DNA of 64,000 nt from an uncultured Solirubrobacterales bacterium (GTDB taxonomy: Bacteria; Actinomycetota; Thermoleophilia; Solirubrobacterales; 70-9). The stretch lies in assembly GCA_963699215.1 (NCBI GenBank), contig OY969422.1, forward strand, positions 723,536 to 787,535. Reading direction: 5' to 3'. Below, one piece after another: positions 3,377-62,593 of this stretch. A program made the translations under genes and the position numbers. Each line of letters opens with the position of its first letter. The stretch's first letter is position 1. The notes under the pieces are model-generated. The model did no database searches. It saw nothing but the letters and a program-made list of their open reading frames with translations, and was not told the origin of the DNA.

Positions 3377-6300
3377 ATGGCGCAAACGGCGACCCTGCAG
3401 ATCCAGATGCCCGAGATGGGGGAGTCCGTTACCGAGGGCATCGTCCTCGAGTGGCATGTCGCCGAGGGAGATTTCGTCAACGAGGGCGACACGGTGGTCG
3501 AGGTCTCGACCGACAAGGTCGACGCCGAGGTGCCGGCGCCGGCCGACGGGGTCATCACGAAGCTGATCGCGCAGGTCGACGACGAGGTGCCTGTCGGCGC
3601 TCCGCTGGCGGAGATGGAGCCCGGTGAGGGAGAGGGCGGGACGGCCGAGGGTTCGGGCGCCTCAGCCGCGGGTCCTGTCGGCGCAGGGGACCGAGACGCC
3701 TCAGCCGCGGGTCCTGTCGCGGAGGAGGGGGGGGCACTGCGGGCGGGCCACGGTCCGTCCTCGACCCCCCCTCCTCCCCGCCACCCACGGGTGGGACGTC
3801 TGAGGGAGCTCCCACCGGGAACGGGGCTGGCAACGGAGTTCGGGCGACTCCCGTCGCTCGGAGGGTCGCTGAAGAGACCGGCGTCGACCTTGGCTCGGTG
3901 AGCGGGAACGGGCCGGGGGGCAAGGTCACCAAGGACGATGTGCTGGCGGCTGCCGACGGGGGCAATGGCGCACTCGCGGCGCCCAGGGCCGGCGAGGCGA
4001 AGCCTTTGCGGGGGCCGGCGGCGATGCTGGCTCAGGCGATGGGCGAGAGCCGGGAGGTTCCCACCGCCACTTCGTTCCGCGAGGTTGCCGTCGACACGCT
4101 CGACGCGAAGCGCAGGGCGCTCAACGGACTGCTCAAGGAGCGCGGGGTGAAGGTCTCCTTCACCCACCTGATCGCCTGGGCGATCGTCCAGGCGGCGAAG
4201 CAGTGGCCGGTGATGACGCGCAGCTTCGAGGAGCGCGACGGCAAGCCGTTCGCGATCGAGAACGGGCCGGTCAACCTCGGCATCGCGGTCGACATCGAGC
4301 GCAAGGACGGCTCGCGCAGCCTGATGGTGCCGGCGATCAAGGGCGCCGACGGGCTCGACTTCGCCGCCTTCCACTCCTACTACGAGGACCTGATCACGAA
4401 GACGCGCGAGAGCAAGCTCACCGCCGACGACTTCCAGGGGACCAACATCTCGCTGACCAACCCGGGTGGGATCGGCACCGTCGCTTCGGTCCCGCGCCTG
4501 ATGAAGGGGCAGAGCGCGATCGTCGCCGCCGGGGCGATCGCCTACCCGCCCGAGTGGGCGCACGCCTCGCCCGAGCGGCTGCGCCAGCTCGGCGTCTCGA
4601 AGACGATGACGCTGACCTCGACCTACGACCACCGGGTGATCCAGGGTGCGGAGTCGGGCGCCTTCCTGCGCCGGATCGAGCAGTTGCTCGAGGGCGAGGA
4701 CGGCTTCTACGAGACGGTCGCCGCCGATCTCGCCGTCGACCCCGGCCCGCTCGCCGCCGCCCACCCCGCCTCCGCCTCGGCGCCGCCGCTCGGCGCCGCC
4801 GCCCCGCCGCCCACCCCGGGCGCGCCCGACGAGGAGCTGCTGAGGGCGGTCCAGGCCGCGACCTCGCTGCTCAAGGGCTACCGCACCCACGGCCACCTCG
4901 CGGCCCGGCTCGACCCGCTCGGGCGGGAGCCCAAGAGCGACCCGGCGATCCAGCCCGAGAACCTCAACCTGACTCCGGAGCTGATGGCCCGCGTCCCGGC
5001 CTCGATCCTGCGGATCGGCGTTCCGGGCGAGACGCTGCTCGACGTGCTGCCGCGGATGCGCGAGGCCTACTGCGGCACGATCGCCTACCAGTTCGAGCAC
5101 CTCTCCTCGCACCAGCAACGGACCTGGCTGCGCGAGATGGTCGAGACCGGCGCCCACCGCCAGCCCCTCACCGACGAGGAGAAACGCCGCCTGCTCCACC
5201 GCCTGATCGACGTCTTCGAGTTCGAGCGCTTCATCGAGAAGGCGTACCTGGGACAGAAGATCTTCTCGATCGAGGGTCTCGACACGATCGTGCCGATGCT
5301 CGACGAGCTGGTCACCCTCGCCGGGCGGGCGGGCGCCGAGGAGGTCGTCTTCGGCATGGCGCACCGCGGCCGCCTCAGCGTCCTCGCCCACAACCTCGGG
5401 CGATCGGTCGAGTCGATTCTGGCCGAGTTCGAGGGCTCGAAGCAGATCGAGCAGGTGAAGGCGGTCGCGGCCATACCCCATGGCGGCACCGGCGACGTCA
5501 AGTACCACTACGGCCACCAGGGGATCTACGAGACCAGCGAGGGCGAGAAGATCGCCGTCCGCCTCTACCCCAACCCGAGCCACCTCGAGTTCGTCGACCC
5601 GGTGGTCGAGGGGGCGACTCGCTTCCTCCAGTCGAGAATCGACGGGGCGAAGCTCGAGCACGAGCCGAAGTGCGCGGTGCCGGTGCTGCTGCACGGCGAC
5701 GCGGCCTTCCCCGGCCAGGGGGTGGTCGCCGAGACGCTCAACCTGCAGGCGCTGCGCGGCTACACCACGGGCGGCACGATCCACGTCATCCAGGACAACC
5801 AGGTGGGCTTCACCACCGACCCCGAGGACGCGCGCTCGACCCCGTATGCGGCCGACATGGCGAAGGGGTTCAACATCCCGATCGTCCACGTCAACGCCGA
5901 CGACGTCGAGGCCTGCTCCTCGGCGATCCGCCTGGCGATGGCCTTCCGCGAGCGCTGGGGCCGCGACATCGTCATCGACGTGATCGGCTACCGCCGCTAC
6001 GGCCACAACGAGACCGACGAGCCCGCCTACACCCAACCCGCGATCGCGGCCAAGATCAAGGCCCACCCGCCGGTCTCCGAGATCTACGCCGAGAAGCTGA
6101 TCGGGGAGGGGACGATCGCCAGCGAGGACGTCGAGCGGGCGCGTACCGAGCGCCACGACGAGATGTCGGCGGCGCTCAAGGACCTGCGCAAGAAGATGGA
6201 GCTGGGCGAGTACGAAGACCCCACCGTGACCACCTCGAGCACGGGCGAACTCGACCGCAGCGCCAGCCCGCCGGTCGAGACCGCCGTCGCGGCGGAGAAG

Positions 6301-11604: not shown

Positions 11605-11737
11605 CTCAGGCCGCAAGCTAGCACCCAGACAGCCGACAGGAATTTGGGATGAAAGTGCGAAAGGCCACAAAATGTTGGTTTTTTGTAAGCATCCGCCCGG
11701 GCAATCGTCTACACTGCCCGCCGTTCCGAACAACCGA

Positions 11738-11870
11738 AACGCCGAATCCCGCAAGCCAGGAGGCGCAGCGGGAACGGGGGAACCACGTTTTCGGGGCTAA
11801 CCCGCTCGACATAGGGCGGGGGCGCAGGCTCCTTTTCGCGCTAGCCCGACAGCTAACCCCGTAGGCCGAC
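11738..11870 (+). promoter_or_regulatory. c-di-AMP riboswitch (ydaO/yuaA class) in the 5' leader of the NlpC/P60 gene
   Basis: Blocks characteristic of the class are visible: GCCGAATCC, ACGGGGGAACCAC, CGGGGCTAACCC, TAGGGCG and GCCCGACAGCTAACCCCGTAGGCC. They are followed by the SD GAAGGAG and a TTG start at 11884. The boundaries are approximate. Confidence 0.75.
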
Positions 11871-11883
11871 GAAGGAGATCGGT

Positions 11884-29521: not shown

Positions 29522-32461
29522 ATGCCTGTCCTAGCCGACTCCCAAGAGCGCGCGATCGGGCACCGCTCCGGACCGCTCCTGCTGACCGGCGAGGCGGGGA
29601 CCGGCAAGACCGAGGTCCTGGCGCAGCGCTTCGAGCGACTGGTCGCAGAGGGGACCGCGCCGGAGCGGATCCTCGTCCTGGCGTCGTCGCAAGCCACCGC
29701 GCAGCGGCTGCGCGAACGGGTCGACGTGCTCCTCGACCGCCCCCTGGAAGAGCTCTGGGTGGGAACCTGGGAGAAGCAGTGCGAGCGGCTTCTGCGCGAG
29801 CACTCGACCGCCGCCGGCCTCGATCCGTTCTTCGCGGTCCTCGGTCCGGCGGAGCGCCTGGCGCTGCTGCTCGACCGTATCGACGACCTGCCCCTGCGCG
29901 GCCATGAGATCCGCGGCAATCCGGCGGGCCTGCTTGCCCGCCTGCTCGAGCGGACCGACGAGGTCAAGGCCGGCTCGGACCCACCCGACCCCGAGCTGGC
30001 CGAGCTGATCGCCGCCCACGACCGCATCCTCGCCGCCACCTGCAGCCTCGACCGCGCCGACGTCTACCTGGCCCTGAGCAAGCTCTTCGACGAGGCCCCC
30101 GACGTTCGCCTTCGGGTCGCTTCTCGCTTCGAGTACCTGATGGTCGACGAGCTGGAGGACACGACCGCTGCTCAACGGGCGATCCTCGTGGCGCTGTCCC
30201 AGGACAACCCGAATCAGCTGTACGCGCTGGGCACAGGTGAGGGGTTGGGGGCGTCCAGCTGGGCGCTGGGTTTTTCGCCAGGTGGGGATGCCTCACACGT
30301 GGAGCCGGCGGGGCGAAAAACAGGACGCCGCGCCCAGCCGGACACCCCCAACCCCTCACCTGTGCCCACGGTCGAACTTACCCGCCAGTTCCGGCAGCCT
30401 GAGACGAAGTTCTGGAGATGTACGAACGAGCGGGCCCAGGCACAGGCGGTTGCGCGGGAAGCCGAGCATCTTGTGGCGGCGGGAACGGCCCCCGAAGAGA
30501 TATGCGTGCTGGTGGACGACCCCACGCGTGGCGGGCCCGTGGCTGCCGCGATGGAAGAGCGGGGCATCCCGTTCCATATGTCTGGCCCGGCGGCGCTGTT
30601 CCAGCGACCGGAGGTCCGGGATGCGATCGCGTGGCTGCGCGTTCTTGCCGACCCGGGCGACTCCGCGGCGGCAGCACGCGCGCTGACCCGCCCCCCGGTC
30701 GAGCTGCGCTCGGCTGACTTGGCGCGGCTGACGACGATCTCGCGGCGGCGCAAGCTCGACCTGGTGTCGGCCTGCGAGGCGGCGCTGGAGAGCCCCCAGA
30801 TATCTCCCGAGGCGCGCGAGCGGATCCAGTCCTTCCTCAAGCTCTACGGAACGGCGTCGGCGGTGCTGGAGGAACGCCGCGCCGACGTCTTCGTGCGACG
30901 GCTGATCGAGGCGGTGGGGTTGCGCCGGCAGCGGCTCTTCGCCGCCCAGCCCGAGGTGGCGGAGCGGCTGCTCGGACTGTCGCGCCTGGCCGAGCTCGCG
31001 GCTGCCTGGGCGCGACGCGAACCCAACGGCTCGACGCGCGATTTCGTCCGCCATCTCACCGCCGTCGCCGACGCCGGGGTTGAGCCGGCCGACGTGGCCG
31101 AGCCGCCGGCGCGCGCGGCGGTGCAGGGACACGTGCGCGAGGCGATCAAGGGAATGGAGTTCGAGCACGTCTTCTTGTTGGGGATGGAGCGCGACGAGGG
31201 AGCTGAGCGGATCGGTCGCCCGGCTCGGCTGGGCCTCGTCCTCTCCCGGGTGGAGCGGGGCGACGAAGGCGAGAGCCGCGCCTCGGAGCTCTACGCCGCG
31301 GCGTTGTCGGAGGCGGACGCCGACGAGGAACCCCACGCCGAGGAGCTGTTCGGCCCGGCCGAGGGGCTGCACGCGACCTACCGCCTGCTGCGCGAGGAGG
31401 TGCTGGAGGCGTCTTGGAAAGCGGGCCGGGAGCTGTCGGAGCCGCGGCTGGACACCGCTGTCGACGTCAACCGCGCGATCGCCCGCTACCTGGAGCTGCT
31501 GAAGCTGGCGGCCCTCGCCCAGCGGCCCGGTGACGAGGCGACCGCGGAGGCGATCGACGCGATCAACGGGCTGCTGCGCCAGGTCGCGACGCCCGAGCAG
31601 CAGGCCGAGCTCGACGCCTCCTCGCTCGACTCCTACCTGCTCGGCTCCGAGCGGGAGCGCGAGGGGCGCCAGCGGCTGATCGCGGCGCGCCAGGAGCCCT
31701 CGCTGGAGGCCTTCCTGCCGCGCCGCGGCGACGGCTCGCTCAGCCTCTCCGCCTCCGACCTCGACCTCTATCTGACCTGCCCGCTGAAGTACAAGTTCGC
31801 GCGCGTCTTCTCCATCCCCCAGGAGCCGACGATCAACCAGCGCTTCGGCATCCTCATCCACAACGTGCTGGAGCGTTTCCACAAAGAAGATGAGGGCGAG
31901 GGCGAGGAAGACGGGCTGCGGCGCCTGATGTCGTTGTTCGAGACGGGCTGGCGGCGCAGCGGCTTCGGCAACAGCGACGACGAGCTGCAGTTCCGCGACC
32001 GGGCGCGGAAGGCGATGCGCCTCTACTGGGAGCGGGAGCGCGACTCCGACGGCGAGCCGGTCTGGCTGGAGCGGAAGTTCGACATCCGGATCGGCGAGCA
32101 CCACGTGCGCGGCCGGGTCGACCGGGTCGACCGCCTGCCGGGCGGGGGCCACGAGCTGATCGACTACAAGACGGGCGAGCGCAAGAGCGAAGCCCAGCTG
32201 GAGAGCGACCTGCAGCTGGCGCTCTACCGGCTCGCCGCTCGCGAGGCCTGGGAGCTAGAGGCCGATACCGGCAGCTACTACTACGTGCTGGACGCCGAGA
32301 AGGTCGCCGCGCCGAGCAAGCCCGACGACGCCGAGCGGGTCGAGCGCACCGTGCTGCAGGTCGGCGAGGGCGTCCTCGGCCAGGACTTCGAGCCACGCCC
32401 CTCGCCAACCGTCTGCGGCTGGTGCGACTACCGCCTGATCTGCCCAGCGGCAGAGAGCTAA
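29522..32461 (+). CDS. UvrD-like helicase fused to a RecB/AddB-type PD-(D/E)XK nuclease with a Cys cluster (AdnA/AddB-like)
   Basis: Walker A GEAGTGKT and DExx MVDELED. C-terminal nuclease motifs LTCPLKYKF, ELIDYKTG, QLALYRLA and CGWCDYRLICP. It carries a 45-codon in-frame palindromic insertion. Confidence 0.8.
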   Translation: MPVLADSQERAIGHRSGPLLLTGEAGTGKTEVLAQRFERLVAEGTAPERILVLASSQATAQRLRERVDVLLDRPLEELWVGTWEKQCERLLREHSTAAGLDPFFAVLGPAERLALLLDRIDDLPLRGHEIRGNPAGLLARLLERTDEVKAGSDPPDPELAELIAAHDRILAATCSLDRADVYLALSKLFDEAPDVRLRVASRFEYLMVDELEDTTAAQRAILVALSQDNPNQLYALGTGEGLGASSWALGFSPGGDASHVEPAGRKTGRRAQPDTPNPSPVPTVELTRQFRQPETKFWRCTNERAQAQAVAREAEHLVAAGTAPEEICVLVDDPTRGGPVAAAMEERGIPFHMSGPAALFQRPEVRDAIAWLRVLADPGDSAAAARALTRPPVELRSADLARLTTISRRRKLDLVSACEAALESPQISPEARERIQSFLKLYGTASAVLEERRADVFVRRLIEAVGLRRQRLFAAQPEVAERLLGLSRLAELAAAWARREPNGSTRDFVRHLTAVADAGVEPADVAEPPARAAVQGHVREAIKGMEFEHVFLLGMERDEGAERIGRPARLGLVLSRVERGDEGESRASELYAAALSEADADEEPHAEELFGPAEGLHATYRLLREEVLEASWKAGRELSEPRLDTAVDVNRAIARYLELLKLAALAQRPGDEATAEAIDAINGLLRQVATPEQQAELDASSLDSYLLGSEREREGRQRLIAARQEPSLEAFLPRRGDGSLSLSASDLDLYLTCPLKYKFARVFSIPQEPTINQRFGILIHNVLERFHKEDEGEGEEDGLRRLMSLFETGWRRSGFGNSDDELQFRDRARKAMRLYWERERDSDGEPVWLERKFDIRIGEHHVRGRVDRVDRLPGGGHELIDYKTGERKSEAQLESDLQLALYRLAAREAWELEADTGSYYYVLDAEKVAAPSKPDDAERVERTVLQVGEGVLGQDFEPRPSPTVCGWCDYRLICPAAES
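30229..30367. repeat. 139-bp imperfect palindromic element embedded in frame in the helicase gene
   Basis: GGGCACAGGTGAGGGGTTGGGGG...CCCCCAACCCCTCACCTGTGCCC, with nested inner pairings (CTGGGCGC/GCGCCCAG and GTTTTTCGCC/GGCGAAAAAC). It is translated as TGEGLGASSWALGFSPGGDASHVEPAGRKTGRRAQPDTPNPSPVP. Confidence 0.8.
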
Positions 32462-32467
32462 GGGTCA

Positions 32468-32622
32468 GCAGGAAGCCCGGTTGTCCTCCGGGTGAATTGA
32501 TGTCGCACGCGCGCTCCGCGCGCTTAGCGACGGTGTTTGTGCGCGGCTAACGCCGCACAGAAAACAGATTGCATATCGCGGCCTTCGGCCACATTCCCCC
32601 GGAGGACAACCGGGCTTCCTGC
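32468..32622. repeat. Structured palindromic element, family A copy 1 (candidate ncRNA or structure-dependent repeat)
   Basis: A 25-bp perfect closing stem GCAGGAAGCCCGGTTGTCCTCCGGG / CCCCGGAGGACAACCGGGCTTCCTGC surrounds a core of about 104 nt with three internal hairpins. Confidence 0.75.
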
Positions 32623-32690
32623 CAACGCTCAGCTGCAACTCCTCTCAAGCTCAAGCAAAGCGAGTTGAGCTGACCCCACTCTGGCTTGAT

Positions 32691-32840
32691 GAAGAAGCGG
32701 CGATCCACTCTCGCGGGAATGTCGCGAAGCGGCGATATGCAATCTGGTGATTGCGCGGCTTCAGCCGCGCACCAACTCAGTCGCTAAGCCCCAAAGGGGC
32801 GTGCGACATCAATTCCCGCGAGAGTGGACCGCCGCTTCTC
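32691..32840. repeat. Structured palindromic element, family A copy 2, inverted relative to copy 1
   Basis: Closing stem GAAGAAGCGGCGATCCACTCTCGCGGGAAT / ATTCCCGCGAGAGTGGACCGCCGCTTCTC. The reverse complement of the core aligns block by block with 32493-32596. Confidence 0.75.
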
Positions 32841-42257: not shown

Positions 42258-42434
42258 ATGCCGTTCGTCCACATCCACTGGTTCGAGGGCCGCAGCGACG
42301 AGCAGAAGGCCGAGATCGCGAAGCGGATCGAAGCGGCGCTGGTCGAGGTGGCCGGCGCCGCCCCCGAGCACTGCTGGGTGAAGTTCTCCGACTCGCCGAA
42401 AACCGACTTCATCATCGGCGAGCGGGCTGAGTAG
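42258..42434 (+). CDS. 4-oxalocrotonate tautomerase family protein (58 aa)
   Basis: Too short for the ORF track. MPFVHIHWFEGRSDEQKAEIAKRIEAALVEVAG, with the catalytic Pro at position 2. Confidence 0.65.
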   Translation: MPFVHIHWFEGRSDEQKAEIAKRIEAALVEVAGAAPEHCWVKFSDSPKTDFIIGERAE

Positions 42435-42533
42435 GGGCCGGGTGCCCCTCCCCGGAGGCCGTTGCGCAGCTGATCGTTGGTGCAGGGTTGGAGTGTGGTT
42501 CCCGGAGCCTCCGGGGGAGGGGCACCCGGCCCC
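42434..42533. repeat. Structured palindromic element, family B copy 1
   Basis: A 25-bp stem GGGGCCGGGTGCCCCTCCCCGGAGG / CCTCCGGGGGAGGGGCACCCGGCCCC around a 49-nt core beginning CCGTTGCGCAGCTGATCG. It fills the spacer between the convergent tautomerase and ileS genes. Confidence 0.8.
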
Positions 42534-42536
42534 GTT

Positions 42537-45500
42537 TCAGGCGCGGGTGATGATGACGTGGAGGTCGCGGCCGTCGAGCTTGACGGTGGCGCCATCCGCG
42601 GCGTCGTAGGCGACCGAGGTCGCGAGGACCTCGCCGGCTACGTAGGACTCGTGGGCGCGGGCGGCCCCGAGCAGCTCCTCGTCGCCGCCGAGGCCGAGCT
42701 CGATCCGGTCGGTGATCTCCAGGCCCGCCTCTTTGCGCGCGTTCTGGACGGCGTGGACGATCTCGCGGGCGAACCCCTCGCGGCGCAGCTCGTCGTCGAG
42801 CTCTAGCTGCAGGGCGACGGCGTGTCCGGCCTCCGCCTCGACCTCGTAGCCCTCCAGCGGCTGCAGGGAGAGAGTCAGCTCGTCGGCGGCAGAGGGTGTG
42901 CTCGTCGCCGTCGACGTTGATGCCGACCTCGCCACCATCGGCCATCACCGCGGCCACGTGGACTGGGTCGAGCGCCTCGACCGCGGCGGCGACCTGCGGC
43001 ATCCGCTTGCCGAAGCGGGGGCCGAGCGAGCGGTAGTTGGGCTTGACCGCGTAGCTGACCAGCTCTGCCTCCTCGGTGACGAAGTCGAGCTCCTTGACGT
43101 TGAGCTCGGCCTTGACCAGCTCGGCGCGGGCCGAGATCGCCGCGCGCTCGGCGTCGTTGGCGACGATCACGGCGCGGCGCAGCGGCTGGCGCACCTTGGC
43201 CTTCGCCTGGGCGCGGGCGGCGCGGCCGAGCTCGACGGTGAGCCGCACCGCCTCCATCGCCGCCTCCAGCTCGGGGTCGGCAAGCGCCGGGTCGGGCTCG
43301 GGGAAGTCGCGCAGGTGGACCGAGTCGGGCAGCTCGCCGAGGTCCTCCCCCTCGCCCCCGGCGAGGTTGAGGTGGATCTCGTCGGCGAGGAAGGGGGTGA
43401 ACGGCGCGAGCAGCGCCGCCGTCTCCAGCAGGCAGTGGCGCAGGGTCGCGAAGGCGGCCCGGTCGCCCTCCCAGAAGCGGCGGCGCGAGAGGCGCACGTA
43501 CCAGTTCGAGAGCTGCTCGACGAACTCGGCGATCGCGCGGCCGGCGGCGGTGCAGTCGAAGTCGTCCATGTGCTCGCGCACCGTCGCCACCGTCGCCTGC
43601 AGCCGCGAGAGCGCCCAGCGGTCGAGGTCGTCGCTCGGCTCCGGCGCGCCGGTGAAATCTCCCGGCGTCGAGGTTCTCGGCGTTCGCGTAGAGGACCCAG
43701 AAGGAGTACGTGTTCCAGAGCGTGAGCAGGAACTGGCGCACCGATTCGCCCACGGTGTCGACCGAGAAGCGGTAGCCCGACCAGGGCTGCTGCGCGGTCA
43801 GGTAGTACCAGCGGAAGGCGTCGGCGCCGTGGGCGGCGATCACGTCCCAGGGCTCGACCACGTTGCCCTTGCTCTTCGACATCTTCTGCCCCTCGGGGTC
43901 GAGGATCAGGCCGAGGCAGACGCAGTTGCGGTAGCTGGAGGTGTCGAAGAGCAGGGTCGACTCGGCGAGCAGCGTGTAGAACCAGCCGCGGGTCTGGTCG
44001 ATCGCCTCGCAGATGAAGTCGGCGGGGAAGCGCTCCTCGAACAGCTCCTCGTTCTCGAACGGGTAGTGGAACTGGGCGAAGGGCATCGCGCCGCTGTCGT
44101 ACCAGGTGTCGATCACCGACTCGACCCGCCGCATCTCGCCGCCGCACCGCTCGCAGTCGAGCGTGACCTCGTCGATGTAGGGGCGGTGCAGGTCGGCGGG
44201 GACCTCGCCTCTGGCGCGCTCGCGCAGCTCGGCGACCGAGCCGGCGCAGAAGCGGCCGTCGCAGGCCTCGCTCGTGCACTCCCAGATCGGCAGCGGCGTC
44301 CCCCAGTAGCGGTCGCGCGAGAGCGCCCAGTCGACGTTGTTCTCCAGCCACTTGCCGAAGCGGCCGTGCTTGATGTGCTCGGGGTGCCAGCCGATCTCCT
44401 CGTTGTTGGCGAGCAGCTGGTCGCGCGCCCGCGAGGTGGCGACGTACCAGCTCGACTTGGCGTAGTAGAGGAGCGGCGTGCCGCAGCGCCAGCAGTGCGG
44501 GTAGGCGTGCTCGTAGACCTGCTCGCGGAAGAGCAGGCCGCGCCCGGCGAGGTCGTCGATCAACGCCCGGGTCACCTCCGGGTCCTTGACGAACCTGCCC
44601 TCGAAGCCGACCACCCGCCTGTCGAAGTGCCCGTCCGGTTCGACCGGGTTGTAGAGGGTGCCGTGCGAGGTGGGGTCGAAGATCCCGTTCTCGGCCGCGA
44701 CCGAGTAGTCGTCCTCGCCGAAGGCCGGAGCGATGTGGACGAGGCCGGTCCCGTCCTCGGTGGTGACGAACTCGCCGGCAACTACGGGGAAACCTCCAGC
44801 CGGCCGATCATCGAGCGCGAAGATCGGGCCTTCGTAGCGGCGGTCGACCAGCTCGCTGCCGGGGAAGCGGTCGGTTATCTCGATGCCCTCGCCGAGCACC
44901 TTCTCGACCAGCGGCTCGGCGAGGATCAGGATCTCGTCTTCGACCTTCGCCTTGACGTAGGTGACCTCCGGCGCAACCGCGACCGCCTCGTTGCCGGGCA
45001 GGGTCCACGGCGTCGTCGTCCAGACCAGCAGCGACTCGCCCGCCGCGGAGCCATCCTCCGCCAGCAACGGGAAGCGCACGTATATGGAGGGGTCCTCGAC
45101 GTCCTGGTAGCCGAGCGCCACCTCGTGCGAGGAGAGCGCGGTGCCGCAGCGCGGGCAGTAGGGGACGACCTTGTGGCCCTCGTAGAGCCGCTCGTCGTCC
45201 CAGAGCTTGCGCAGCGACCACCAGACCGACTCGATGTACTCGTCGTCGAGGGTGACGTAGGGATCGTCGAGGTCGATCCAGAAGCCGATCCGCTCGGTCA
45301 GCCGGTTCCAGTCCTCGACGTACTCGAAGACCGACTCGCGGCAGCGGCGGTTGAACTCGGCGATCCCGTACTCCTCGATCTCCTGCTTGGAGGAGATGCC
45401 GAGCTCCTTCTCCACCTCGAGCTCGACCGGCAGCCCGTGACAGTCCCAGCCGGCCTTGCGCGGCACCCGGTAGCCGCACATCGTGCGGTAGCGGGGGTAG

Positions 45501-52408: not shown

Positions 52409-53719
<1,311 letters not shown>

Positions 53720-53722
<3 letters not shown>

Positions 53723-53824
53723 GGATCAGGAGTCCCTCCCGCGGAGGCTCAAGGGACCACGCCTGAACCCTCCGCCCGCGATCAGCTGCGCAACGGTCTC
53801 CGCGGGAGGGACTCCTGATCCTTA
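53720..53824. repeat. Structured palindromic element, family B copy 2 (opposite orientation)
   Basis: TAAGGATCAGGAGTCCCTCCCGCGGAG / CTCCGCGGGAGGGACTCCTGATCCTTA. The arms contain the stop codons of both convergent genes. The reverse complement of the core matches the 42459-42507 core. Confidence 0.8.
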
Positions 53825-55267
53825 CCCCTGAAGCGTTATGAAGCGCTCCTCCGTTAGCTCTAGGACTGCGAAAGCGGGACCCTCGCGGGTGTTGCCGGAG
53901 TCCTTGACGCCGCCGTAGGGCATCTGGTCGGCGCGGAAGGTCGGGACCTCGTTGATCAGGACGCCGCCAAACTCGAGCGTCGCGGCCGCCTCTAATCCGC
54001 GACCCATGTCGCGGGTGAAGACGCCGGCCTGAAGGCCGAACTTGGAGTCGTTCGCCAGCCGCAGCGCCTCGCCGAAGTCCGCGTAGCGATCGATCGTCGC
54101 CACCGGGCCGAAGACCTCCTCGCACCAGACCTTGGCCTCGCGCGGTGGGGCGCCGAGCAGGGTCGGAGCGAGGCAGCGTCCCTCGTCGACCAGCTCGCCC
54201 CCGGTCAGCAGCTCGGCCCCGCCGGCGACCGCCTCGTCGATCCACTGCTTGACCCGGTCGCGGTCACTGGGCGAGATCAGCGGCCCGACGTCGGTCTCGG
54301 GGTCGAGCGGGTCGCCGACCCGAAGGCTCCCGGTGTTGGCGACGAGGCGCTCGGTGAAGGCGTCGGCGACGTCCTCGTGGACGAGGATCCGCTGGATCGA
54401 GATGCAGCTCTGCCCCGCGTGGGAGAAGGCGTGCAGCTTGGCTTTGTCGGCCGCGATCTCCCAGTCGCCATCGGAGTGGACGATCAGCGGCGCGTTGGAG
54501 CCCAGCTCGAGGTTGACCTTCTTGTGCGGGACGCGGCTGCGGATCCCCCAGCCGACCTTGGCCGAGCCGGTGAAGCTGAGCGCCCCGGTCAGCTCGTGCT
54601 CGACGATCGCGTTGCCGACCTCCGAGCCCGGGCCCGGGACGACGCTGAGCCAGCCCTGCGGCAGGCCCGCCTCGACCAGGATCGCGGCCAGCTTCAGCGC
54701 TGAGATCGGCGTCTGCCCGGCTGGCTTGAGGACGACCGCGTTGCCGGCGGCAATCGCCGGGCCGAGCTTGTGCGCAACCAGATTGAGCGGGAAGTTGAAG
54801 GGGCTGATCGCGCCGACGACGCCGAAGGGGACGCGCAACATCACGCCGAGCTTGCCGGCGCCGGCCGCCGATGCCTCCATCGGCACCGTGCCGCCGCTCA
54901 GCTTGCGCGCCTCGACCGCGGAGAAGGTGAGCGTGTCGACGCAGCGGGCGGCCTCCGCCTGCGCGGTCTTCAGCGGCTTGCCCGCCTCAGCGGCGATCGT
55001 CAGCGCCAGATCGTCGAGCCGCTCAGCGGTCAGCTCGGCGGCCTGGTCGAGCACCGCTGCCCGCTCGTGCTGAGGGAAGTCGCCCGACTCGAAGGCGGCA
55101 CGGGCAGCAATCGCACAGCGGTCCACGAGCCCTGCGTCGCCCTGCGCGACCCGGCCGACGACGGTGCCGTCATACGGGCTCTTTACCTCAGCCCACTCGC
55201 CCGTCCCGGTCCACTCGCCAGCGGCGAGGAGCTCGTGGTCGACCGCTTGCACCGTCTGCGTCGCCAT
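53822..55267 (-). CDS. NAD(P)-dependent aldehyde dehydrogenase
   Basis: 481 aa; FTGSAKVG, ELGSNAP and the catalytic GQSCISIQR. Confidence 0.9.
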   Translation of the reverse strand: MATQTVQAVDHELLAAGEWTGTGEWAEVKSPYDGTVVGRVAQGDAGLVDRCAIAARAAFESGDFPQHERAAVLDQAAELTAERLDDLALTIAAEAGKPLKTAQAEAARCVDTLTFSAVEARKLSGGTVPMEASAAGAGKLGVMLRVPFGVVGAISPFNFPLNLVAHKLGPAIAAGNAVVLKPAGQTPISALKLAAILVEAGLPQGWLSVVPGPGSEVGNAIVEHELTGALSFTGSAKVGWGIRSRVPHKKVNLELGSNAPLIVHSDGDWEIAADKAKLHAFSHAGQSCISIQRILVHEDVADAFTERLVANTGSLRVGDPLDPETDVGPLISPSDRDRVKQWIDEAVAGGAELLTGGELVDEGRCLAPTLLGAPPREAKVWCEEVFGPVATIDRYADFGEALRLANDSKFGLQAGVFTRDMGRGLEAAATLEFGGVLINEVPTFRADQMPYGGVKDSGNTREGPAFAVLELTEERFITLQG

Positions 55268-55282
55268 TCAGCTAAGCGTAGA

Positions 55283-55411
55283 GGAGGGCAGGGGTTGCCT
55301 CGACGATGCCTCGCGAAGCGGCCCCGGCAAGGTGATTCCAGCCGCGAAGCGGCACCAGATTCCACCGCCGAAGGCGGTGGTGGGCACTCGTCGAGGCGAC
55401 CCCTGCCCTCC
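55283..55411. repeat. Structured palindromic element related to family A
   Basis: A 24-bp stem GGAGGGCAGGGGTTGCCTCGACGA / TCGTCGAGGCGACCCCTGCCCTCC with one T-G pair. The core holds three hairpins with GAA loops and shares TCGCGAAGCGGC, GGTGATT and GCGGCACCA with 32721-32775. Confidence 0.7.
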
Positions 55412-55418
55412 CCAATGC

Positions 55419-56408
55419 TCAGCCGTCGGCGTAAGGCTGAATCGGAATGCCGTGGTCGGTCTCGCGCATCCCCAGCTCATAGGCCGCGCCGGCGGCGAGG
55501 GAGAGCCGCAGCGGCGGCACGGCGGGTCGTTCGACCGTCAGCTCGAGATCGGAGACAGAGCAGTTGACCGTGTTGTGCTCGGGCCCCTTGGGGTCGGCGT
55601 AGATCCAGCCGACGAAGTCCTTCCGTGGCGCCGAGACCTTGCCGCGGACGACGATTTCCTTGCCCGGGAGGACGAAGGAGCACTCGCCGGCGGACTCGAC
55701 GATCGTCGCCTTGCGGATCTGGCCGAACCCACCCAGACGGTGGGCCTTGCCTTCGAGCATCAGCATCCCGGACGGGATCCAGGGGGTCTTCCAGGGACCC
55801 AGCTTGATCCGGGCGGCGCCAGCGTCGAAGTAGGTGCCGGGGGAGCCGTCGAAGCCGGTGCCCTCCAGCCAGACCCAGCGCTCGGCGTGCTCGGTGCCCC
55901 AGTTGTGGCCGATCATCCCTGGCCAGCCCTCGAGCTCGATCGTCTCGCCGCCGATCTCGAGACGGCCGTCGAAGCGCGCGTTCGGGAAGGGGGCGACGAA
56001 CTTGGTTTTCGGCAGCCGCGTCTCGTAGAGGCGGTCCGATGGCAGGTACTTGCAGGGCTCGGCGTCGCCGGAGAAGCTCAGCTCCCACGACGCTTGGAGC
56101 GTGTCGGTCGCGATCCCTCCGCTGGCCCTGCCGGGGCCGATCTCCGCGCCTGCGACGCGGATCCACGATCCGGCCGGCGTCGAGAGCTCGGCGGCCGGCA
56201 CGGTCACCTTGGTTGCCCGCGGCCCACCCGCCTCGCGGTCGAAGAGGACGAACCAGATCGAGGCTTTCGGCTCGGCCCCGGGCCGCTTGTGGACCGTGTG
56301 CCGGATCCAGACTCCCCGCCCGCCCTCGGGCTGGCAGGCCTTGATGTAGAAGCTCTCGTAGTGGCCCGCCCTGGGGGCGACCGCCGGGAACCGCGCTCCC
56401 TGGTCCAT
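55419..56408 (-). CDS. Hypothetical 329-aa protein (beta-rich; no family recognised with confidence)
   Basis: Clean ORF with protein-like composition. I see no motif I can name. Confidence 0.55.
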   Translation of the reverse strand: MDQGARFPAVAPRAGHYESFYIKACQPEGGRGVWIRHTVHKRPGAEPKASIWFVLFDREAGGPRATKVTVPAAELSTPAGSWIRVAGAEIGPGRASGGIATDTLQASWELSFSGDAEPCKYLPSDRLYETRLPKTKFVAPFPNARFDGRLEIGGETIELEGWPGMIGHNWGTEHAERWVWLEGTGFDGSPGTYFDAGAARIKLGPWKTPWIPSGMLMLEGKAHRLGGFGQIRKATIVESAGECSFVLPGKEIVVRGKVSAPRKDFVGWIYADPKGPEHNTVNCSVSDLELTVERPAVPPLRLSLAAGAAYELGMRETDHGIPIQPYADG

Positions 56409-59082: not shown

Positions 59083-61911
59083 ATGAGAAGCAAGCGTGGT
59101 CCACTAGGGCTGCTCGTTCTCGCCGCCGCATTCCTCGTTCTCGCACTCGGAGCATCCAGCGCCCAGGCCGAATTCGGCATCGAAAGATGGGAATCGCTGA
59201 CCTGTAAAACGGACGTGACCCTTCCGGGAGCGGGAGATTGGTCGAACACCCCCGGCAGCGATCCATGCATCGCGTCGAACCCCGCCGAACGGTTCTACAC
59301 CGAAGCGGCCGGCCATCCCCCGTTTGGCATCACGGCGTTTCTGATGAATCAGACGGGGGGCAGTCCAAACCTCCCCGACGGCTTCCTCAAAGAGATCCGG
59401 GTCGAACTGCCCGAGGGCTTGGGTGTCAATCCCCAAGCCACGCCCCAGTGCACTGTGCAAAAACTCTCGGAACCGGTTGCCCCGGGTCCTCCCGTGGCAA
59501 CCAAATGCACGACCGAAGTGCCCGGGTCCCTGGTTGGGGTCGACTACCTGACCACCCTCGCCCCTGGACCATCTCCTCCCGCGGGTACGGAAATCACCAT
59601 CCCGGCGTTCGTCTACAACATCGAAACGCCGGACGACCCCGAATCGCCGTTCTTTGGCGCACCCTCGATGGCCGGCTTCAACGCGACCGGGAAACCGACG
59701 ATCCTCGTCGGCGACCTCGATCCGGTCGACCAGCACATCTCCTTCACGATCCACGACATCGAGTCGCCGCTGACGCCGGGCGTCGCGCCGATCATCGGCT
59801 CGCGGCTGGTCTTCCAGGGCCAGAAAGGAACCGGCTACTTAACGCTGCCGAGCGAGTGCGCGGGGCCGCAGACGACCATTCTCGACGTCCTCTCGCATCC
59901 GTATCCGATCCCTCCGGGACCAGAACTGGAACGCATCAAAACCTTCGAAACCCCCTACAGCGCCACCGACTGCGACAAAGTCCCGTTCGACCCGTCGATC
60001 GACGTCACTGTCGACAGCAAGACCGACTCGCCCGATCCGGCGACGCTCGATGTCCAGATCCCCTTTAACCCGAACCCGACCGGGATCACCGACTCGCAAC
60101 TGGAGGTCGCGAAAATCACGCTTCCAGAAGGAGGCGGGATCAACCCCTCCTCCGCGAACGGGCTCGTGCCTTGCACGGATGAGCAGTTCGCGAAAGGAAC
60201 CAACAACCCGATCACCTGTCCCATCGAGTCGAGGGTGGGTTCGGTCGAGGTGGTGACCCCATCGCTGCCCGGCGTCCTCGGAGGCGAGGTCTACGTCGGC
60301 GCACCGAACAGCAACAACCCGAGCTCCGGCGAGCAGTTCCGAATCTTCCTGCACGTCGTCTCGGCGCGCTTCGGGGTCAACGTGCGGTTGGTCGCGAATG
60401 TCTTCCCCAACCTGAAAACCGGGCAGATCACTGCCGAAGTTGCCGACAACCCCCAGGCACCCTTCGAATCGTTCAAAGTCCACATCGACGGGGGCCCGAA
60501 AGGCGTCCTGACCACGCCCGACACCTGCGGGCCGCACAAAACCACGTCACAGTTGACCCCGTTCTCGGGTAACTCCGATGCGGAACCATCCAGCGAATTC
60601 ACCCTGGACGAAGCCGCCGGTGGCGGACCCTGTCCGAAAACGCTGGCCGAGCGGCCGTTCAGCCCGACCTTCAGTGCCGGGACGAAAAGCACCAAGGCGG
60701 GCGCCTTCAGCCCGTTCGAGCTGCACATCACGCGACCCGATGGCGCCCAGGAGATCCGCCAGGTCGACGTCGACCTGCCGCCGGGGATGGTGGCGAAGCT
60801 GAAGGGCGTCGCGTACTGCCCCGAGGCGGACATCGCCGCCGCGGCCGGCAAGAGCGGTGCAGCGGAGCTCGCCGCGCCGAGCTGCCCCAACAGCAGTTTC
60901 GTGGGCACGACCGGGATCGACGCGGGCTCCGGCCCGGCGCCGTTCCACACGACCGGCAAGGCCTACCTCGCCGGCCCCTACAAAGGCGCGCCGATCAGCA
61001 TGGCCTTCGTGACGTCGGCGGTCGCGGGCCCCTATGACCTGGGGACCGTCGTGGTCAGGGCCGCCATCAACGTCGACCCCGAAACGGCGGAGGTTCACGC
61101 CGTCTCGGATCCGATCCCCTACATATTCGGCGGGGTGAAGCTCGACATCCGCAAGATCGACGTCTCGATCGACCGGCAGAACTTCACCCTCAACCCGACC
61201 ACCTGCCGCCAGGCGTTCCAGATCGGATCGGGGATCTTCGGCGGCGGCGGCAACCCGGCCGACCCGGCAAGCTGGTTCGAGTCGAAACCGTCGACCGAGT
61301 TCCGCGCAAGCGACTGCAAAGCGCTGCAGTTCAAACCGAAGTTCTACGCGCGGATCTTCGGCGGCGAGAACCAGGTGCGCAGGACCGCCCACCCGAAATT
61401 CCGGGCCACCCTGGATGCACGCAAAGGCGACGCCAACGTGCGCCGGGCAGCGTTCATCCTGCCCCGCGCGACGATCCTCGACCAGGGCCACATCAAAACC
61501 ATCTGCACGCGAGTGCAGCTGGCGGCGAAAGACTGCCCGAAAGCGTCGATCTACGGCAATGCCAAGGCGACCTCGCCCCTGCTCGCGGGCCAGCTCAAGG
61601 GGCCGGTCTACCTGACCTCGTCCGACAACCCGCTGCCGGACCTGCTGGTCGACCTGCGCGGCCAGGTGGACATCCGCCTGCGCGGCGTGATCAGCTCCGA
61701 GCACGGCCGTCTCAAGACGGTGTTCCGCACGACGCCCGACGTGGCGGTCGACAAGTTCGTCCTGACGATGAAGGGAGGCGACCGCGGGCTGCTGGTCAAC
61801 TCGCGCGACCTCTGCTCGAGGCAGACGAACGGCTTCCTCAATCTCGGGGCACAGAACAGCAGGCGGCTGAAACGGAACAACCTGCGGCTCAACATCCCCG
61901 CCTGCCGCTAG
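59083..61911 (+). CDS. Large secreted hypothetical protein (942 aa) with three related internal modules
   Basis: Signal peptide LLVLAAAFLVLALGASSAQA. The recurring pattern (V/I)xLP(E/P)G...NP...C appears as VELPEGLGVNPQATPQCT, ITLPEGGGINPSSANGLVPCT and VDLPPGMVAKLKGVAYCP. Codon usage is noticeably richer in A/T-ending codons than in neighbouring genes. Confidence 0.7.
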   Translation: MRSKRGPLGLLVLAAAFLVLALGASSAQAEFGIERWESLTCKTDVTLPGAGDWSNTPGSDPCIASNPAERFYTEAAGHPPFGITAFLMNQTGGSPNLPDGFLKEIRVELPEGLGVNPQATPQCTVQKLSEPVAPGPPVATKCTTEVPGSLVGVDYLTTLAPGPSPPAGTEITIPAFVYNIETPDDPESPFFGAPSMAGFNATGKPTILVGDLDPVDQHISFTIHDIESPLTPGVAPIIGSRLVFQGQKGTGYLTLPSECAGPQTTILDVLSHPYPIPPGPELERIKTFETPYSATDCDKVPFDPSIDVTVDSKTDSPDPATLDVQIPFNPNPTGITDSQLEVAKITLPEGGGINPSSANGLVPCTDEQFAKGTNNPITCPIESRVGSVEVVTPSLPGVLGGEVYVGAPNSNNPSSGEQFRIFLHVVSARFGVNVRLVANVFPNLKTGQITAEVADNPQAPFESFKVHIDGGPKGVLTTPDTCGPHKTTSQLTPFSGNSDAEPSSEFTLDEAAGGGPCPKTLAERPFSPTFSAGTKSTKAGAFSPFELHITRPDGAQEIRQVDVDLPPGMVAKLKGVAYCPEADIAAAAGKSGAAELAAPSCPNSSFVGTTGIDAGSGPAPFHTTGKAYLAGPYKGAPISMAFVTSAVAGPYDLGTVVVRAAINVDPETAEVHAVSDPIPYIFGGVKLDIRKIDVSIDRQNFTLNPTTCRQAFQIGSGIFGGGGNPADPASWFESKPSTEFRASDCKALQFKPKFYARIFGGENQVRRTAHPKFRATLDARKGDANVRRAAFILPRATILDQGHIKTICTRVQLAAKDCPKASIYGNAKATSPLLAGQLKGPVYLTSSDNPLPDLLVDLRGQVDIRLRGVISSEHGRLKTVFRTTPDVAVDKFVLTMKGGDRGLLVNSRDLCSRQTNGFLNLGAQNSRRLKRNNLRLNIPACR

Positions 61912-61976
61912 GGCACGGGGTTGCAGCGACGCCGGGGCGGGGCCCAGAGCCCGCCCCGGCGTCGCTGCAGGTGCCC
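61911..61976. repeat. Long near-perfect hairpin between convergent genes, with arms related to those of 55283-55411 and 30229-30367
   Basis: A 20-bp perfect stem TGCAGCGACGCCGGGGCGGG / CCCGCCCCGGCGTCGCTGCA, with an outer GGGCAC/GTGCCC pair and a short loop. The 5' arm GGGCACGGGGTTGCAGCGACG resembles GGGCAGGGGTTGCCTCGACG. Confidence 0.7.
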
Positions 61977-61981
61977 GCCTG

Positions 61982-62593
61982 TCAGGCCGGGGACAGCCGA
62001 GCGAAGTAGGCGAACCAGTTGCCGGAGTGGGTCTCGTGGGAGAGGCCCGCCTGGCCGGCCTGGCGCTTGAGGCTGGCGAGGGTGGTGAAGTGGGGATCGC
62101 CGAACAGCTCGCCGACGACGAGGCGGCCGGAGGGCTTCAGCACGCGGCGGATCTCGCGCAGCGCGGCGCCCGGATCGGGAATCTCACCGAGGACCGCGGT
62201 GAGGACCGCGGCATCGACCGAGGCGTCCTCGTAGGGAAGGGCGGTCGCGTCGCCCTGGGTGGGGACGACGTTCTGCAGGCCGCGCTCGGCGGCGCGGCGC
62301 ATGACGTGGTCGAGGAACTCCTGCTGCAGGTCGAAGATCTCGACCGTGCCCTCCGGGCCGAGCCACTCGGCGAGGTCGAGCGTGTAGTAACCGGTGCCCG
62401 GACCGATCTCGAGGACCCGCTCGCCCGGCGTCGGTTGCAAGACCGACCGCAGCCGGTCGCGGGTGACGATCGGGTGCGGCGCTTCGACCCAGAATCGCTG
62501 CCCGTAGGGGCAGGCGGACGGGTTCTTGCGCCACCACAGGGCCGCGCCCAGCGTCGCCAGCGAGGCGGCGCCGAGCAGCCGGCGCGCCCGCAT
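61982..62593 (-). CDS. Class I SAM-dependent methyltransferase
   Basis: Motif I VLEIGPGTGYYT, with an N-terminal hydrophobic segment. Confidence 0.8.
   Translation of the reverse strand: MRARRLLGAASLATLGAALWWRKNPSACPYGQRFWVEAPHPIVTRDRLRSVLQPTPGERVLEIGPGTGYYTLDLAEWLGPEGTVEIFDLQQEFLDHVMRRAAERGLQNVVPTQGDATALPYEDASVDAAVLTAVLGEIPDPGAALREIRRVLKPSGRLVVGELFGDPHFTTLASLKRQAGQAGLSHETHSGNWFAYFARLSPA

Follow-up and report, generated by a model that had tools for sequence, protein, structure and literature searches.

The helicase-nuclease gene at positions 29522..32461 (+ strand) of a 64,000-nucleotide stretch of DNA from an uncultured Solirubrobacterales bacterium (assembly GCA_963699215.1, contig OY969422.1, positions 723,536 to 787,535; hereafter the window) contains an imperfect palindrome of 139 bp, which is read in frame. 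This segment belongs to a family of palindromic repeats, dispersed and non-autonomous, that is specific to the order Solirubrobacterales. Carried by soil members of this order, the family was, to our knowledge, previously undescribed. Taken as a whole, the data are best explained by a coding palindromic repeat similar to the Rickettsia palindromic elements (RPEs), here in a new phylum, and we consider this reading probable.

A palindrome lies in frame between the two halves of a helicase

The palindrome had been delimited at 30229..30367 in a preliminary description of the window, and it is as described there; its in-frame codons, 238-282, correspond to 30233-30367. The window has exactly two occurrences of the 23-nt outer arm GGGCACAGGTGAGGGGTTGGGGG, one on each strand (30229-30251, +; 30345-30367, -), and a match to it was found in 0/100 shuffles. 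Repeat finding extends the arms to 44 nt (30228-30271 and 30325-30368, 91% complementary), with a perfect 10-nt inner stem, GTTTTTCGCC/GGCGAAAAAC, nested at 30270-30279 and 30312-30321. Folded as a single strand, the 30220-30375 segment reaches -115.5 kcal/mol, compared to -73.2 +/- 4.4 kcal/mol for shuffled sequences (z = -9.72), and none of 200 shuffles folded as well. The open reading frame (ORF) 29522-32461 is uninterrupted through the palindrome. Deletion of 30233-30367 (135 nt; codons 238-282, TGEGLG...PSPVP) leaves GGC ACG GTC with the frame kept, again in agreement with the earlier description. The predicted insert peptide has 45 residues and is rich in Gly, Pro, Ser and Arg; SSWALGFSPGGDASHVEPAGR is an example of a peptide predicted from this region.

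The left arm (30228..30271, + strand) consists of a variable outer block, GAGGGGTT, a conserved GGGGGCGTCC and the start of a conserved inner arm (GCTGGGT). In the window the variable block is the reverse complement of the right arm; between species, its sequence differs. The 5′ half of the inner stem, GTTTTTCGCC (30270..30279), lies within the invariant family core GCTGGGTTTYTCGCC and is followed by a central loop of 32 nt (30280..30311) and by the 3′ half of the stem, GGCGAAAAAC (30312..30321), which is part of the pattern used to search for the family. The central loop is asymmetric in the fold, and the orientation of the element can therefore be read. Orientation is also marked by an asymmetric bulge, AGGAC..., on the inner stem's 3′ side (30322..30327), where six bases are unpaired in the minimum-free-energy fold. 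The right arm (30325..30368) is made up of GCCGCGCCCAGCCGGACACCCCC, AACCCCTC and ACCTGTGCCC.

The host gene encodes a UvrD-type helicase of 979 amino acids, fused to a C-terminal PD-(D/E)XK nuclease (Cas4/AddB-like, with a Cys cluster). Pfam recognizes UvrD-helicase at residues 5-233 (PF00580, E-value 4.5e-28), UvrD_C at 294-415 (PF13361, 1.2e-14) and PDDEXK_1 at 741-975 (PF12705, 1.1e-44). With both UvrD halves and the nuclease domain present, the protein belongs to the UvrD/PcrA-type superfamily 1 helicases that carry a PD-(D/E)XK domain. Its NCBIfam matches (PcrA, UvrD, Rep, AddA and AddB) were every one under the equivalog cut-off. Motif III is degenerate (NPNQLYAL), and the helicase activity of the protein is therefore not assured. 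The insert lies between the two helicase halves, because UvrD-helicase stops at residue 233 and UvrD_C begins at 294. This places it in the connector that joins the degenerate motif III to motif IV (QFRQ), consistent with the location just before QFRQ originally assigned to it. Indeed, PcrA (1PJR) can be aligned to residues 6-230 and 296-390 of the host protein, and the gap between the two is the insert region.

The element belongs to a repeat family with a conserved core

The exact 23-nt outer arm, which is copy-specific, had no match in a collection of species representatives from which the window's own genome is absent. The inner arm GGCGARAAACAGGACGCCGCGCC is present at at least 50 loci, among those listed, spread over 29 assemblies of Solirubrobacterales (a single genome has up to 4), and a covariance model of the family (R1) detected at least 9 further copies within the fetched loci. 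In the window, the full match to the model covers the element and a degenerate outermost stem (30222..30373, + strand, 134.3 bits, E 8e-22). The same interval scores 63 bits on the - strand, and its nhmmer E-value is 8e-34. By the covariance model, the helicase copy is the only strong family member in the 64-kb window.

Across 49 aligned copies, the mean column identity is 70% and the core is invariant. The core consists of GCTGGGTTTYTCGCC, a loop of ~32 nt and then GGGCGARAAAC-AGGAC-GCCGCGCC, an asymmetric arrangement that is almost invariant. The left inner arm GCTGGGTTTYTCGCC is the same in all 49 aligned copies, though it lay outside the search pattern; the bulge AGGACGCCGCGCC is likewise found in 49/49 copies, but was part of the pattern. 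Around the core is a nearly invariant GGGGGTGTCC/GGACACCCCC stem, followed by stems that vary in sequence and are always paired. The RNAalifold consensus contains 33 pairs, 19 of which show compensatory double changes; some columns include four Watson-Crick pair types, as in one column pair with AU 20, UA 11, CG 10 and GC 5. The loops of the aligned copies have a CTCGCTGAG-type mini-hairpin in common, and an additional outer stem, CCCGCGGGT...ACCCGCGGG, set off by an asymmetric CCTG bulge, is present in many copies.

Family members are ~140-165 bp long, GC-rich (about 70% GC) and poor in stop codons: a copy has on average 4.3 of its 6 frames open, compared to 3.5 for genomic windows of the same length and 2.6 for shuffled copies. 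The only matches of the element in Rfam 15 were to generic miRNA-precursor hairpins (27-60 bits vs. gathering scores of 72-200), and the family consensus contains no GTAG motif of the REP type. As a minor observation, a terminator-like match, with a short GC stem and then a T5 run (part of an invariant T5/A5 tract), occurs in the conserved core on each strand, at 30250-30277 (+) and 30335-30313 (-); the two read GGCGTCCAGCTGGGCGCT GGGTTTTT and GGGCGCGGCGTCC TGTTTTT, respectively (2 observed vs. 0.3 expected).

Unrelated genes are read through copies of the repeat

Continuous ORFs run through copies of the repeat in unrelated genes, with Pfam domains on both sides. In DnaX (nine species), the copy is located between domain III and DnaX_C, and in the Lhr helicase between DEAD and Helicase_C, at two distinct sites in two species. 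A copy also lies within the gene for an MMPL transporter, another at the PyrK-PyrD junction in what is a single continuous ORF, and a third splits the Complex1_30kDa domain of NuoC. A membrane protein at locus L100 has three in-frame copies (4408-4558, 5062-5211 and 5819-5925 of that locus); Pfam gave no match for this protein, and its ORF is conserved in orthologues of several species. The orthologue at locus L094 has the first copy only. A minority of copies are intergenic or upstream of genes (UbiA, HolB).

In a strict test based on GC content at third codon positions (GC3), 22 of 58 distinct copies were intragenic and in frame, which is a lower bound only, since the classifier is conservative and missed known intragenic copies, including that of the window. 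Once genes verified by Pfam or by orthology are added, the intragenic, in-frame share comes to about three quarters of the ~58 copies. Filled and empty orthologous sites differ by 153 and 117 nt, each a multiple of three. No clear target-site duplication was visible at two filled/empty pairs (L100 vs. L094), where the flanks have diverged. The outermost CCCGCGGG is self-complementary, and an inverted repeat is indistinguishable from a direct repeat there.

The helicase element replaces part of a native loop

A protein search returned >120 orthologues of the helicase at 81-86% identity, and those with a named source are metagenome-assembled genomes (MAGs) of Solirubrobacterales. Their lengths fall into two main clusters, of ~975-986 and 943-957 residues. 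For comparison of the site, we took DNA from 80 orthologous loci (labelled L001 etc.), which belong to different species. The majority of the aligned orthologues have a homologous insert at the helicase site. A common, more distant state is a native loop of ~40 residues (NPNHLYALE..SWFRDLHPEGDVVxLExxFRxP), and the length of the motif III-IV loop ranges from 32 to 101 residues among orthologues. Compared with shuffles, native-loop DNA has a folding z of about 0, and element-bearing loops z of -3.5 to -10. The insert-bearing orthologues are thus palindromic at the DNA level, and the insert is not a homologous segment devoid of DNA symmetry across the lineage.

The element replaces part of the native loop and is not a clean addition. 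Orthologues lacking it have ~19 residues at the insert position (e.g. ESEGAHSSWFRDLHPEGDV) that are partly absent from the window's gene, and native ...SSWFRDLHPEGDV... is absent from element-bearing genes. The simple addition of 45 codons initially proposed must therefore be revised to a net gain of 28 residues (979 vs. 951). The insert is missing from orthologues with a native loop. It is shared by many species, in both orientations, and the helicase element is not a recent private insertion. Every orthologue in the alignment is in frame, inverted and deleted forms included.

Three further observations concern this loop. At two of the 80 loci, L035 and L033, the longest ORF could not be aligned here (the L035 translation is garbled and that of L033 empty), for which a frameshift, an assembly error and the choice of ORF are candidate causes. 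Secondly, the element-encoded W-A-L-G-F-S-P-G (30257-30283) stands in place of the native W-[FSA]-[RL]-x-[LV]-[HF]-P-[ED]-[GA] (cf. L021, L030 and L037). The native W-x-x-x-L-H-P-E-G-type stretch is presumably the counterpart of the ...RFLNDFPGA... of UvrD before motif IV. The likeness may be a coincidence, or may be the reason why a copy could replace the native segment. Lastly, different inserts of 54-70 residues occupy the same loop in other lineages (L012, L014, L017, L023, L026, L050, L053, L063, L073 and L076), for example ...PPAGG...DRTRRP... and ...SPAGGAGRGPRTD.PARPQDP.... Some of these fold significantly (z down to -7), with the CCCGCGGG outer-stem motif, and the inserts are probably degenerate or variant relatives of the same repeat family.

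Inversion, recombination and independent insertion at the helicase site

At gene-oriented loci, the strand best matched by R1 is + in the window, L001, L003, L010 and L027, and - in L002, L006, L007, L011 and L022. Type A and type B orthologues have loops that are reverse complements of each other between the same outer flanks, and a 5-nt difference in inner-arm length is on the opposite side in type B. It follows from this reversal of loop and arm asymmetry that the core was inverted in place. The frame is open in either orientation, reading ...WALGFSP...GRKTGRRA... in one case and ...WARRPVFRP...GEKPS... in the other. The variable 10-nt block is the same in both arms in 8 of 12 copies, yet varies from one species to another (GAGGGGTT in the window; GATGAGGA, GAGGGCGC and GGCGCGGA are further examples), and symmetric in-frame deletions of the centre are seen in several species.

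The tree, whose bootstrap was computed by a numpy implementation, groups these forms as (L010 type A, (L011 type B, L021 native)), with bootstrap values of 100% and 99%. Outside residues ~170-400, the identity of L021 to L011 is 0.87-0.96; inside them it falls to 0.69-0.81, and L021 is nearer there to the native-type L013. These identities mark residues ~170-400 of L021 as a recombination tract that includes the loop. A single insertion inherited vertically is ruled out as a sufficient explanation by the native L021 nested among carriers and this tract, and also by an independent insertion at L034/L030, considered below. Viewed separately, the mosaic of L021 indicates that Solirubrobacterales species at ~15-20% divergence exchange gene segments by homologous recombination.

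The octamer CCCGCGGG is 22-fold enriched in the loop across 79 orthologues (1.26 vs. 0.056 per kb), a count that includes solo copies, read as 'PAG' directly before the conserved Trp. We infer that the solo copies are footprints of older copies of the element. The motif III-IV connector has thus been a long-term landing and retention site for the repeat family.

Constraint acts on nucleotides

One and the same core encodes many peptides, depending on the host: LGFSP, AGFFA, CWVFRQ, GEKPS, AKNPAP and RRKTQ. In ten helicase orthologues, 43 of 332 four-fold sites are invariant and the pairwise identity is 0.60. In these ten the core has long invariant runs, in either orientation to the frame. The constraint acts on nucleotides, not on the peptide or the mRNA. 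Wobble pairs in 35 intragenic copies were also counted, and 19 pairs are wobble on the mRNA-sense strand vs. 17 on the antisense strand only (p = 0.87). This parity argues against selection for an mRNA hairpin, and for maintenance of the palindrome at the level of DNA.

Proposed history of the element and alternatives

If the element is an RPE-like coding repeat, the element-bearing helicase allele would be old, common to many species and moved between lineages by homologous recombination. The core would have been inverted by exchange between the element's own inverted arms; while in place, the element would also have undergone in-frame deletions of its centre, and its two arms would have co-evolved. 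What preserves the palindrome would act on DNA: most likely template switching, or conversion of one arm by the other at quasi-palindromes, with conversion from other copies, or selection on the core, as possible additions. Selection on the peptide, or for a hairpin in the mRNA, would not be what maintains it. The host gene would stay functional, with the inserted peptide tolerated as a disordered surface loop.

A number of points weigh against this reading, or limit it. Mobility is deduced from dispersal only, because the filled/empty pairs revealed neither a target-site duplication nor a terminal signature nor a linked transposase. For an element that was purely selfish and decaying, a core this close to invariant past synonymous saturation is more than would be expected. 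At L034, a full element (114 bits) lies a few codons further upstream and leaves the native AWSLTVHP intact, and L030 has a core-deleted form at the same position; this is an independent insertion. L022 (type B) belongs to another clade, which bears on the idea of a single ancestral insertion. Since the copies come from the at least 50 loci listed, copy numbers and the coding fraction are rough. The search pattern included the right inner arm and the bulge, and the invariance of the right inner arm is thus partly circular; that of the left arm is not, nor is the conservation of the core in helicase orthologues, which were fetched by protein. Finally, residues 230-290 are predicted to be disordered in an AlphaFold model, with a predicted local distance difference test score (pLDDT) of 23-33 and without secondary structure between flanks at 61-86 and 82-86, but this model, made from 62 close orthologues, is poor overall (mean pLDDT 53, predicted template modelling score 0.36), and the local contrast only can be used.

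An alternative that we regard as unlikely is that the core is a selected nucleic-acid module, the peptide being a by-product. The core would then be either a hairpin that a dedicated transposase or recombinase recognizes as a folded single strand, with the family as a REPIN/RAYT-like replicator within genomes that resides mainly in ORFs, or a binding site for a DNA protein of the host. The core is indeed near-invariant even though synonymous sites are only 60% identical, and it occurs in both orientations and all reading frames. The stems covary whereas the core does not, a pattern that recognition of both a structure and a motif would produce, and the family persists across the whole order. 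The AGGAC bulge is in every copy retrieved with the bulge-containing pattern, and the CTCGCTGAG mini-hairpin is common to the loops. Unconstrained correction between the arms should erase the asymmetry of bulge and loop; that it survives leaves room for a functional recognition module. However, no associated enzyme gene was identified (no genome-wide search was made), the element lacks a REP-like GTAG, and most copies are intragenic, unlike REP or REPIN. Moreover, concerted evolution by gene conversion among copies could imitate selection on the core, and ascertainment by the core pattern exaggerates its apparent invariance.

REPINs are long hairpins of two inverted units, recognized as folded single-stranded DNA. 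A more specific proposal along these lines, and in our view a doubtful one, is that the family is a long-lived REPIN-type within-genome replicator specialized to ORFs, the core being the predicted folded-DNA site of a hairpin-specific enzyme. If this were true, the stop-free, disorder-encoding arms would permit persistence in essential genes and the self-complementary ends CCCGCGGG near-precise loss. The element itself would be selected, and would be an order-wide source of linkers and loops in DnaX, NuoC and DNA helicases.

It is far less likely that the hairpin is a regulatory structure selected at the mRNA level in the helicase gene, for instance to pause translation between the two helicase halves or as a site for RNase III, its similarity to other loci then being secondary. 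In favour of this are the high stability of the fold (-115.5 kcal/mol) and its location exactly at the domain boundary, and the DnaX and Lhr copies are likewise between domains. The strong counter-argument is that the core is found in both orientations at one site. In addition, there is no wobble bias towards the sense strand (19 vs. 17), orthologues manage without the element or with centre-deleted remnants of it, the element also occurs between genes and inside the NuoC domain, and it matches no Rfam family.

Long-read assemblies can create fold-backs, and the length of the motif III-IV loop is variable (32-101 residues), but an ordinary surface loop with accidental palindromy, or an assembly artefact (fold-back chimera), is effectively refuted: neither the arms nor the fold was reproduced by any shuffle, the z of native loops is about 0, the element is present at the helicase site in independent short-read (k141 megahit) and long-read MAGs, and family copies lie in unrelated genes.

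Comparison with known palindromic elements

RPE-1 to RPE-10 were reportedly described by Ogata et al. in 2000 and 2002. The family resembles RPEs in consisting of dispersed palindromic repeats of ~105-150 bp with one long stem-loop, and in both the mechanism of spread and target-site duplication are unclear. It shares three features of the RPE class, namely dispersed copies, several per genome, with a consensus, a palindrome of ~100-150 bp and in-frame copies in unrelated conserved genes. The likeness to RPEs noted at the outset is reinforced by the dispersed family, by its in-frame copies in unrelated housekeeping genes and by native loops without the hairpin. RPEs are 105-146 bp long, form a long stem-loop and are in frame in 19 conserved genes, and the product of an RPE-bearing gmk gene is still active (PMC2229807, PMC10969869). 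They are reported to lose repeat identity with time (PMC6649704). In contrast, the palindrome of our family is maintained, with covarying arms and an invariant core, and the core is found in both orientations at one orthologous site. The intragenic share of copies also appears to be larger than for RPEs. The hosts differ, being free-living soil Actinomycetota of the class Thermoleophilia in one case and obligate intracellular Alphaproteobacteria in the other. Since the family is about 70% GC, homology to RPEs is implausible; it is an analogue by description, not a member of the RPEs.

In-frame fusions are also known for Correia elements (107-bp form), ERIC, YPAL and the QMITE type of MITE (miniature inverted-repeat transposable element) of Coxiella (PMC2229807, PMC5896051, PMC10969869). 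Bacterial MITEs and the family have in common that they are non-autonomous, 100-200 bp long, have a stem-loop transcript and include some copies co-translated with host ORFs. However, MITEs are mainly intergenic, with conserved terminal inverted repeats, and often have TA target duplications and a candidate parent insertion sequence (IS). The conserved part of the family is internal and its outer stems are variable, and no target-site duplication or parent IS was found at the sites compared. Like REP/BIME and REPIN sequences (with RAYT transposases), the family consists of hairpin-forming repeats that persist within lineages, and its combination of a conserved motif and a structural stem fits REPIN-type recognition. 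REP and REPIN are extragenic by definition and have a conserved GTAG, whereas the family is mostly intragenic and has no GTAG. The coding palindromes of Nematomorpha mitochondria are actively kept perfect or near-perfect, with gains and losses between species, and the mechanism put forward for their maintenance is template switching (PMC6649704). They too are long inverted repeats embedded in protein-coding sequence; however, they are gene-internal duplications with both arms encoding host protein, while the family is dispersed with a shared core.

A 2019 paper on coding palindromes lists few reported cases, mainly those of Rickettsia, whose intracellular genomes are reduced and AT-rich (PMC6649704). 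The supposition that no equivalent was described in high-GC Gram-positive bacteria agrees with our literature searches, in which we found none for Actinomycetota, Thermoleophilia or Solirubrobacter, although this is not proof of absence. Stable palindromes in protein-coding sequence are rare, and the family extends the phenomenon to free-living, high-GC soil Actinomycetota, with copies in essential replication, repair and respiration genes across many species. A hairpin that outlasts synonymous saturation and flips in place is a natural system for the maintenance of palindromes under coding constraint, with template switching, arm conversion and recombination between inverted repeats as routes open to study. 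The family shows how selfish or structural DNA can give rise to disordered loops in conserved proteins. In practical terms, the inserts will confuse taxonomic markers based on indels, domain annotation (as in the split NuoC) and the assembly of Solirubrobacterales MAGs.

Other hairpins and features of the window

The helicase gene has as neighbours a gene of the inositol-monophosphatase family, on the opposite strand, and an ABC ATPase gene downstream; no partner helicase gene was recognized among the flanking ORFs checked.

The 5′ arm of the helicase element had been linked to intergenic hairpins at 55283 and 61911 as members of one repeat superfamily. This link could not be upheld: the two score 29 and 24 bits with the covariance model (E 0.002-0.02), compared to 134 bits for the helicase copy, neither has the invariant core, and nhmmer gave E > 6 elsewhere in the window. 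More generally, the hairpins at 55267-55428, 53704-53839, 61909-61983, 3702-3795, 42415-42551 and 32468-32840 were rejected as members (12-29 bits, no profile match, no core).

Some of these hairpins merit description in their own right. Directly after the helicase stop codon, 32456-32840 contains nested long inverted repeats with arms of 42, 61, 28 and 22 nt and a lowered GC content of about 0.60; the first of these repeats starts AGCTAAGG... and finishes ...GCTCAGCT. The hairpin at 55271-55423 has ends similar to those of this cluster (GCTAAGCG...GCTCAGC), and the two may constitute a second palindromic family. Long imperfect palindromes at 53698-53846 (49-nt arms, 82% complementary) and 42427-42540 (27-nt arms, 89% complementary) score 16-26 bits and are not members of the helicase family. 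The 3702-3795 segment is hairpin-like, with a GC content of 0.81, and scores 27.8 bits (E 0.004) with the family model, without the core. A perfect 20-bp GC-rich hairpin with an 8-nt loop (61922-61969), just after a TAG stop codon, is unrelated to the helicase element and looks like an ordinary terminator type. Lastly, a c-di-AMP riboswitch (ydaO/yuaA leader) is located at 11730-11882 (+); at 70.4 bits vs. a gathering score of 38, it is the sole above-threshold Rfam match in the window.

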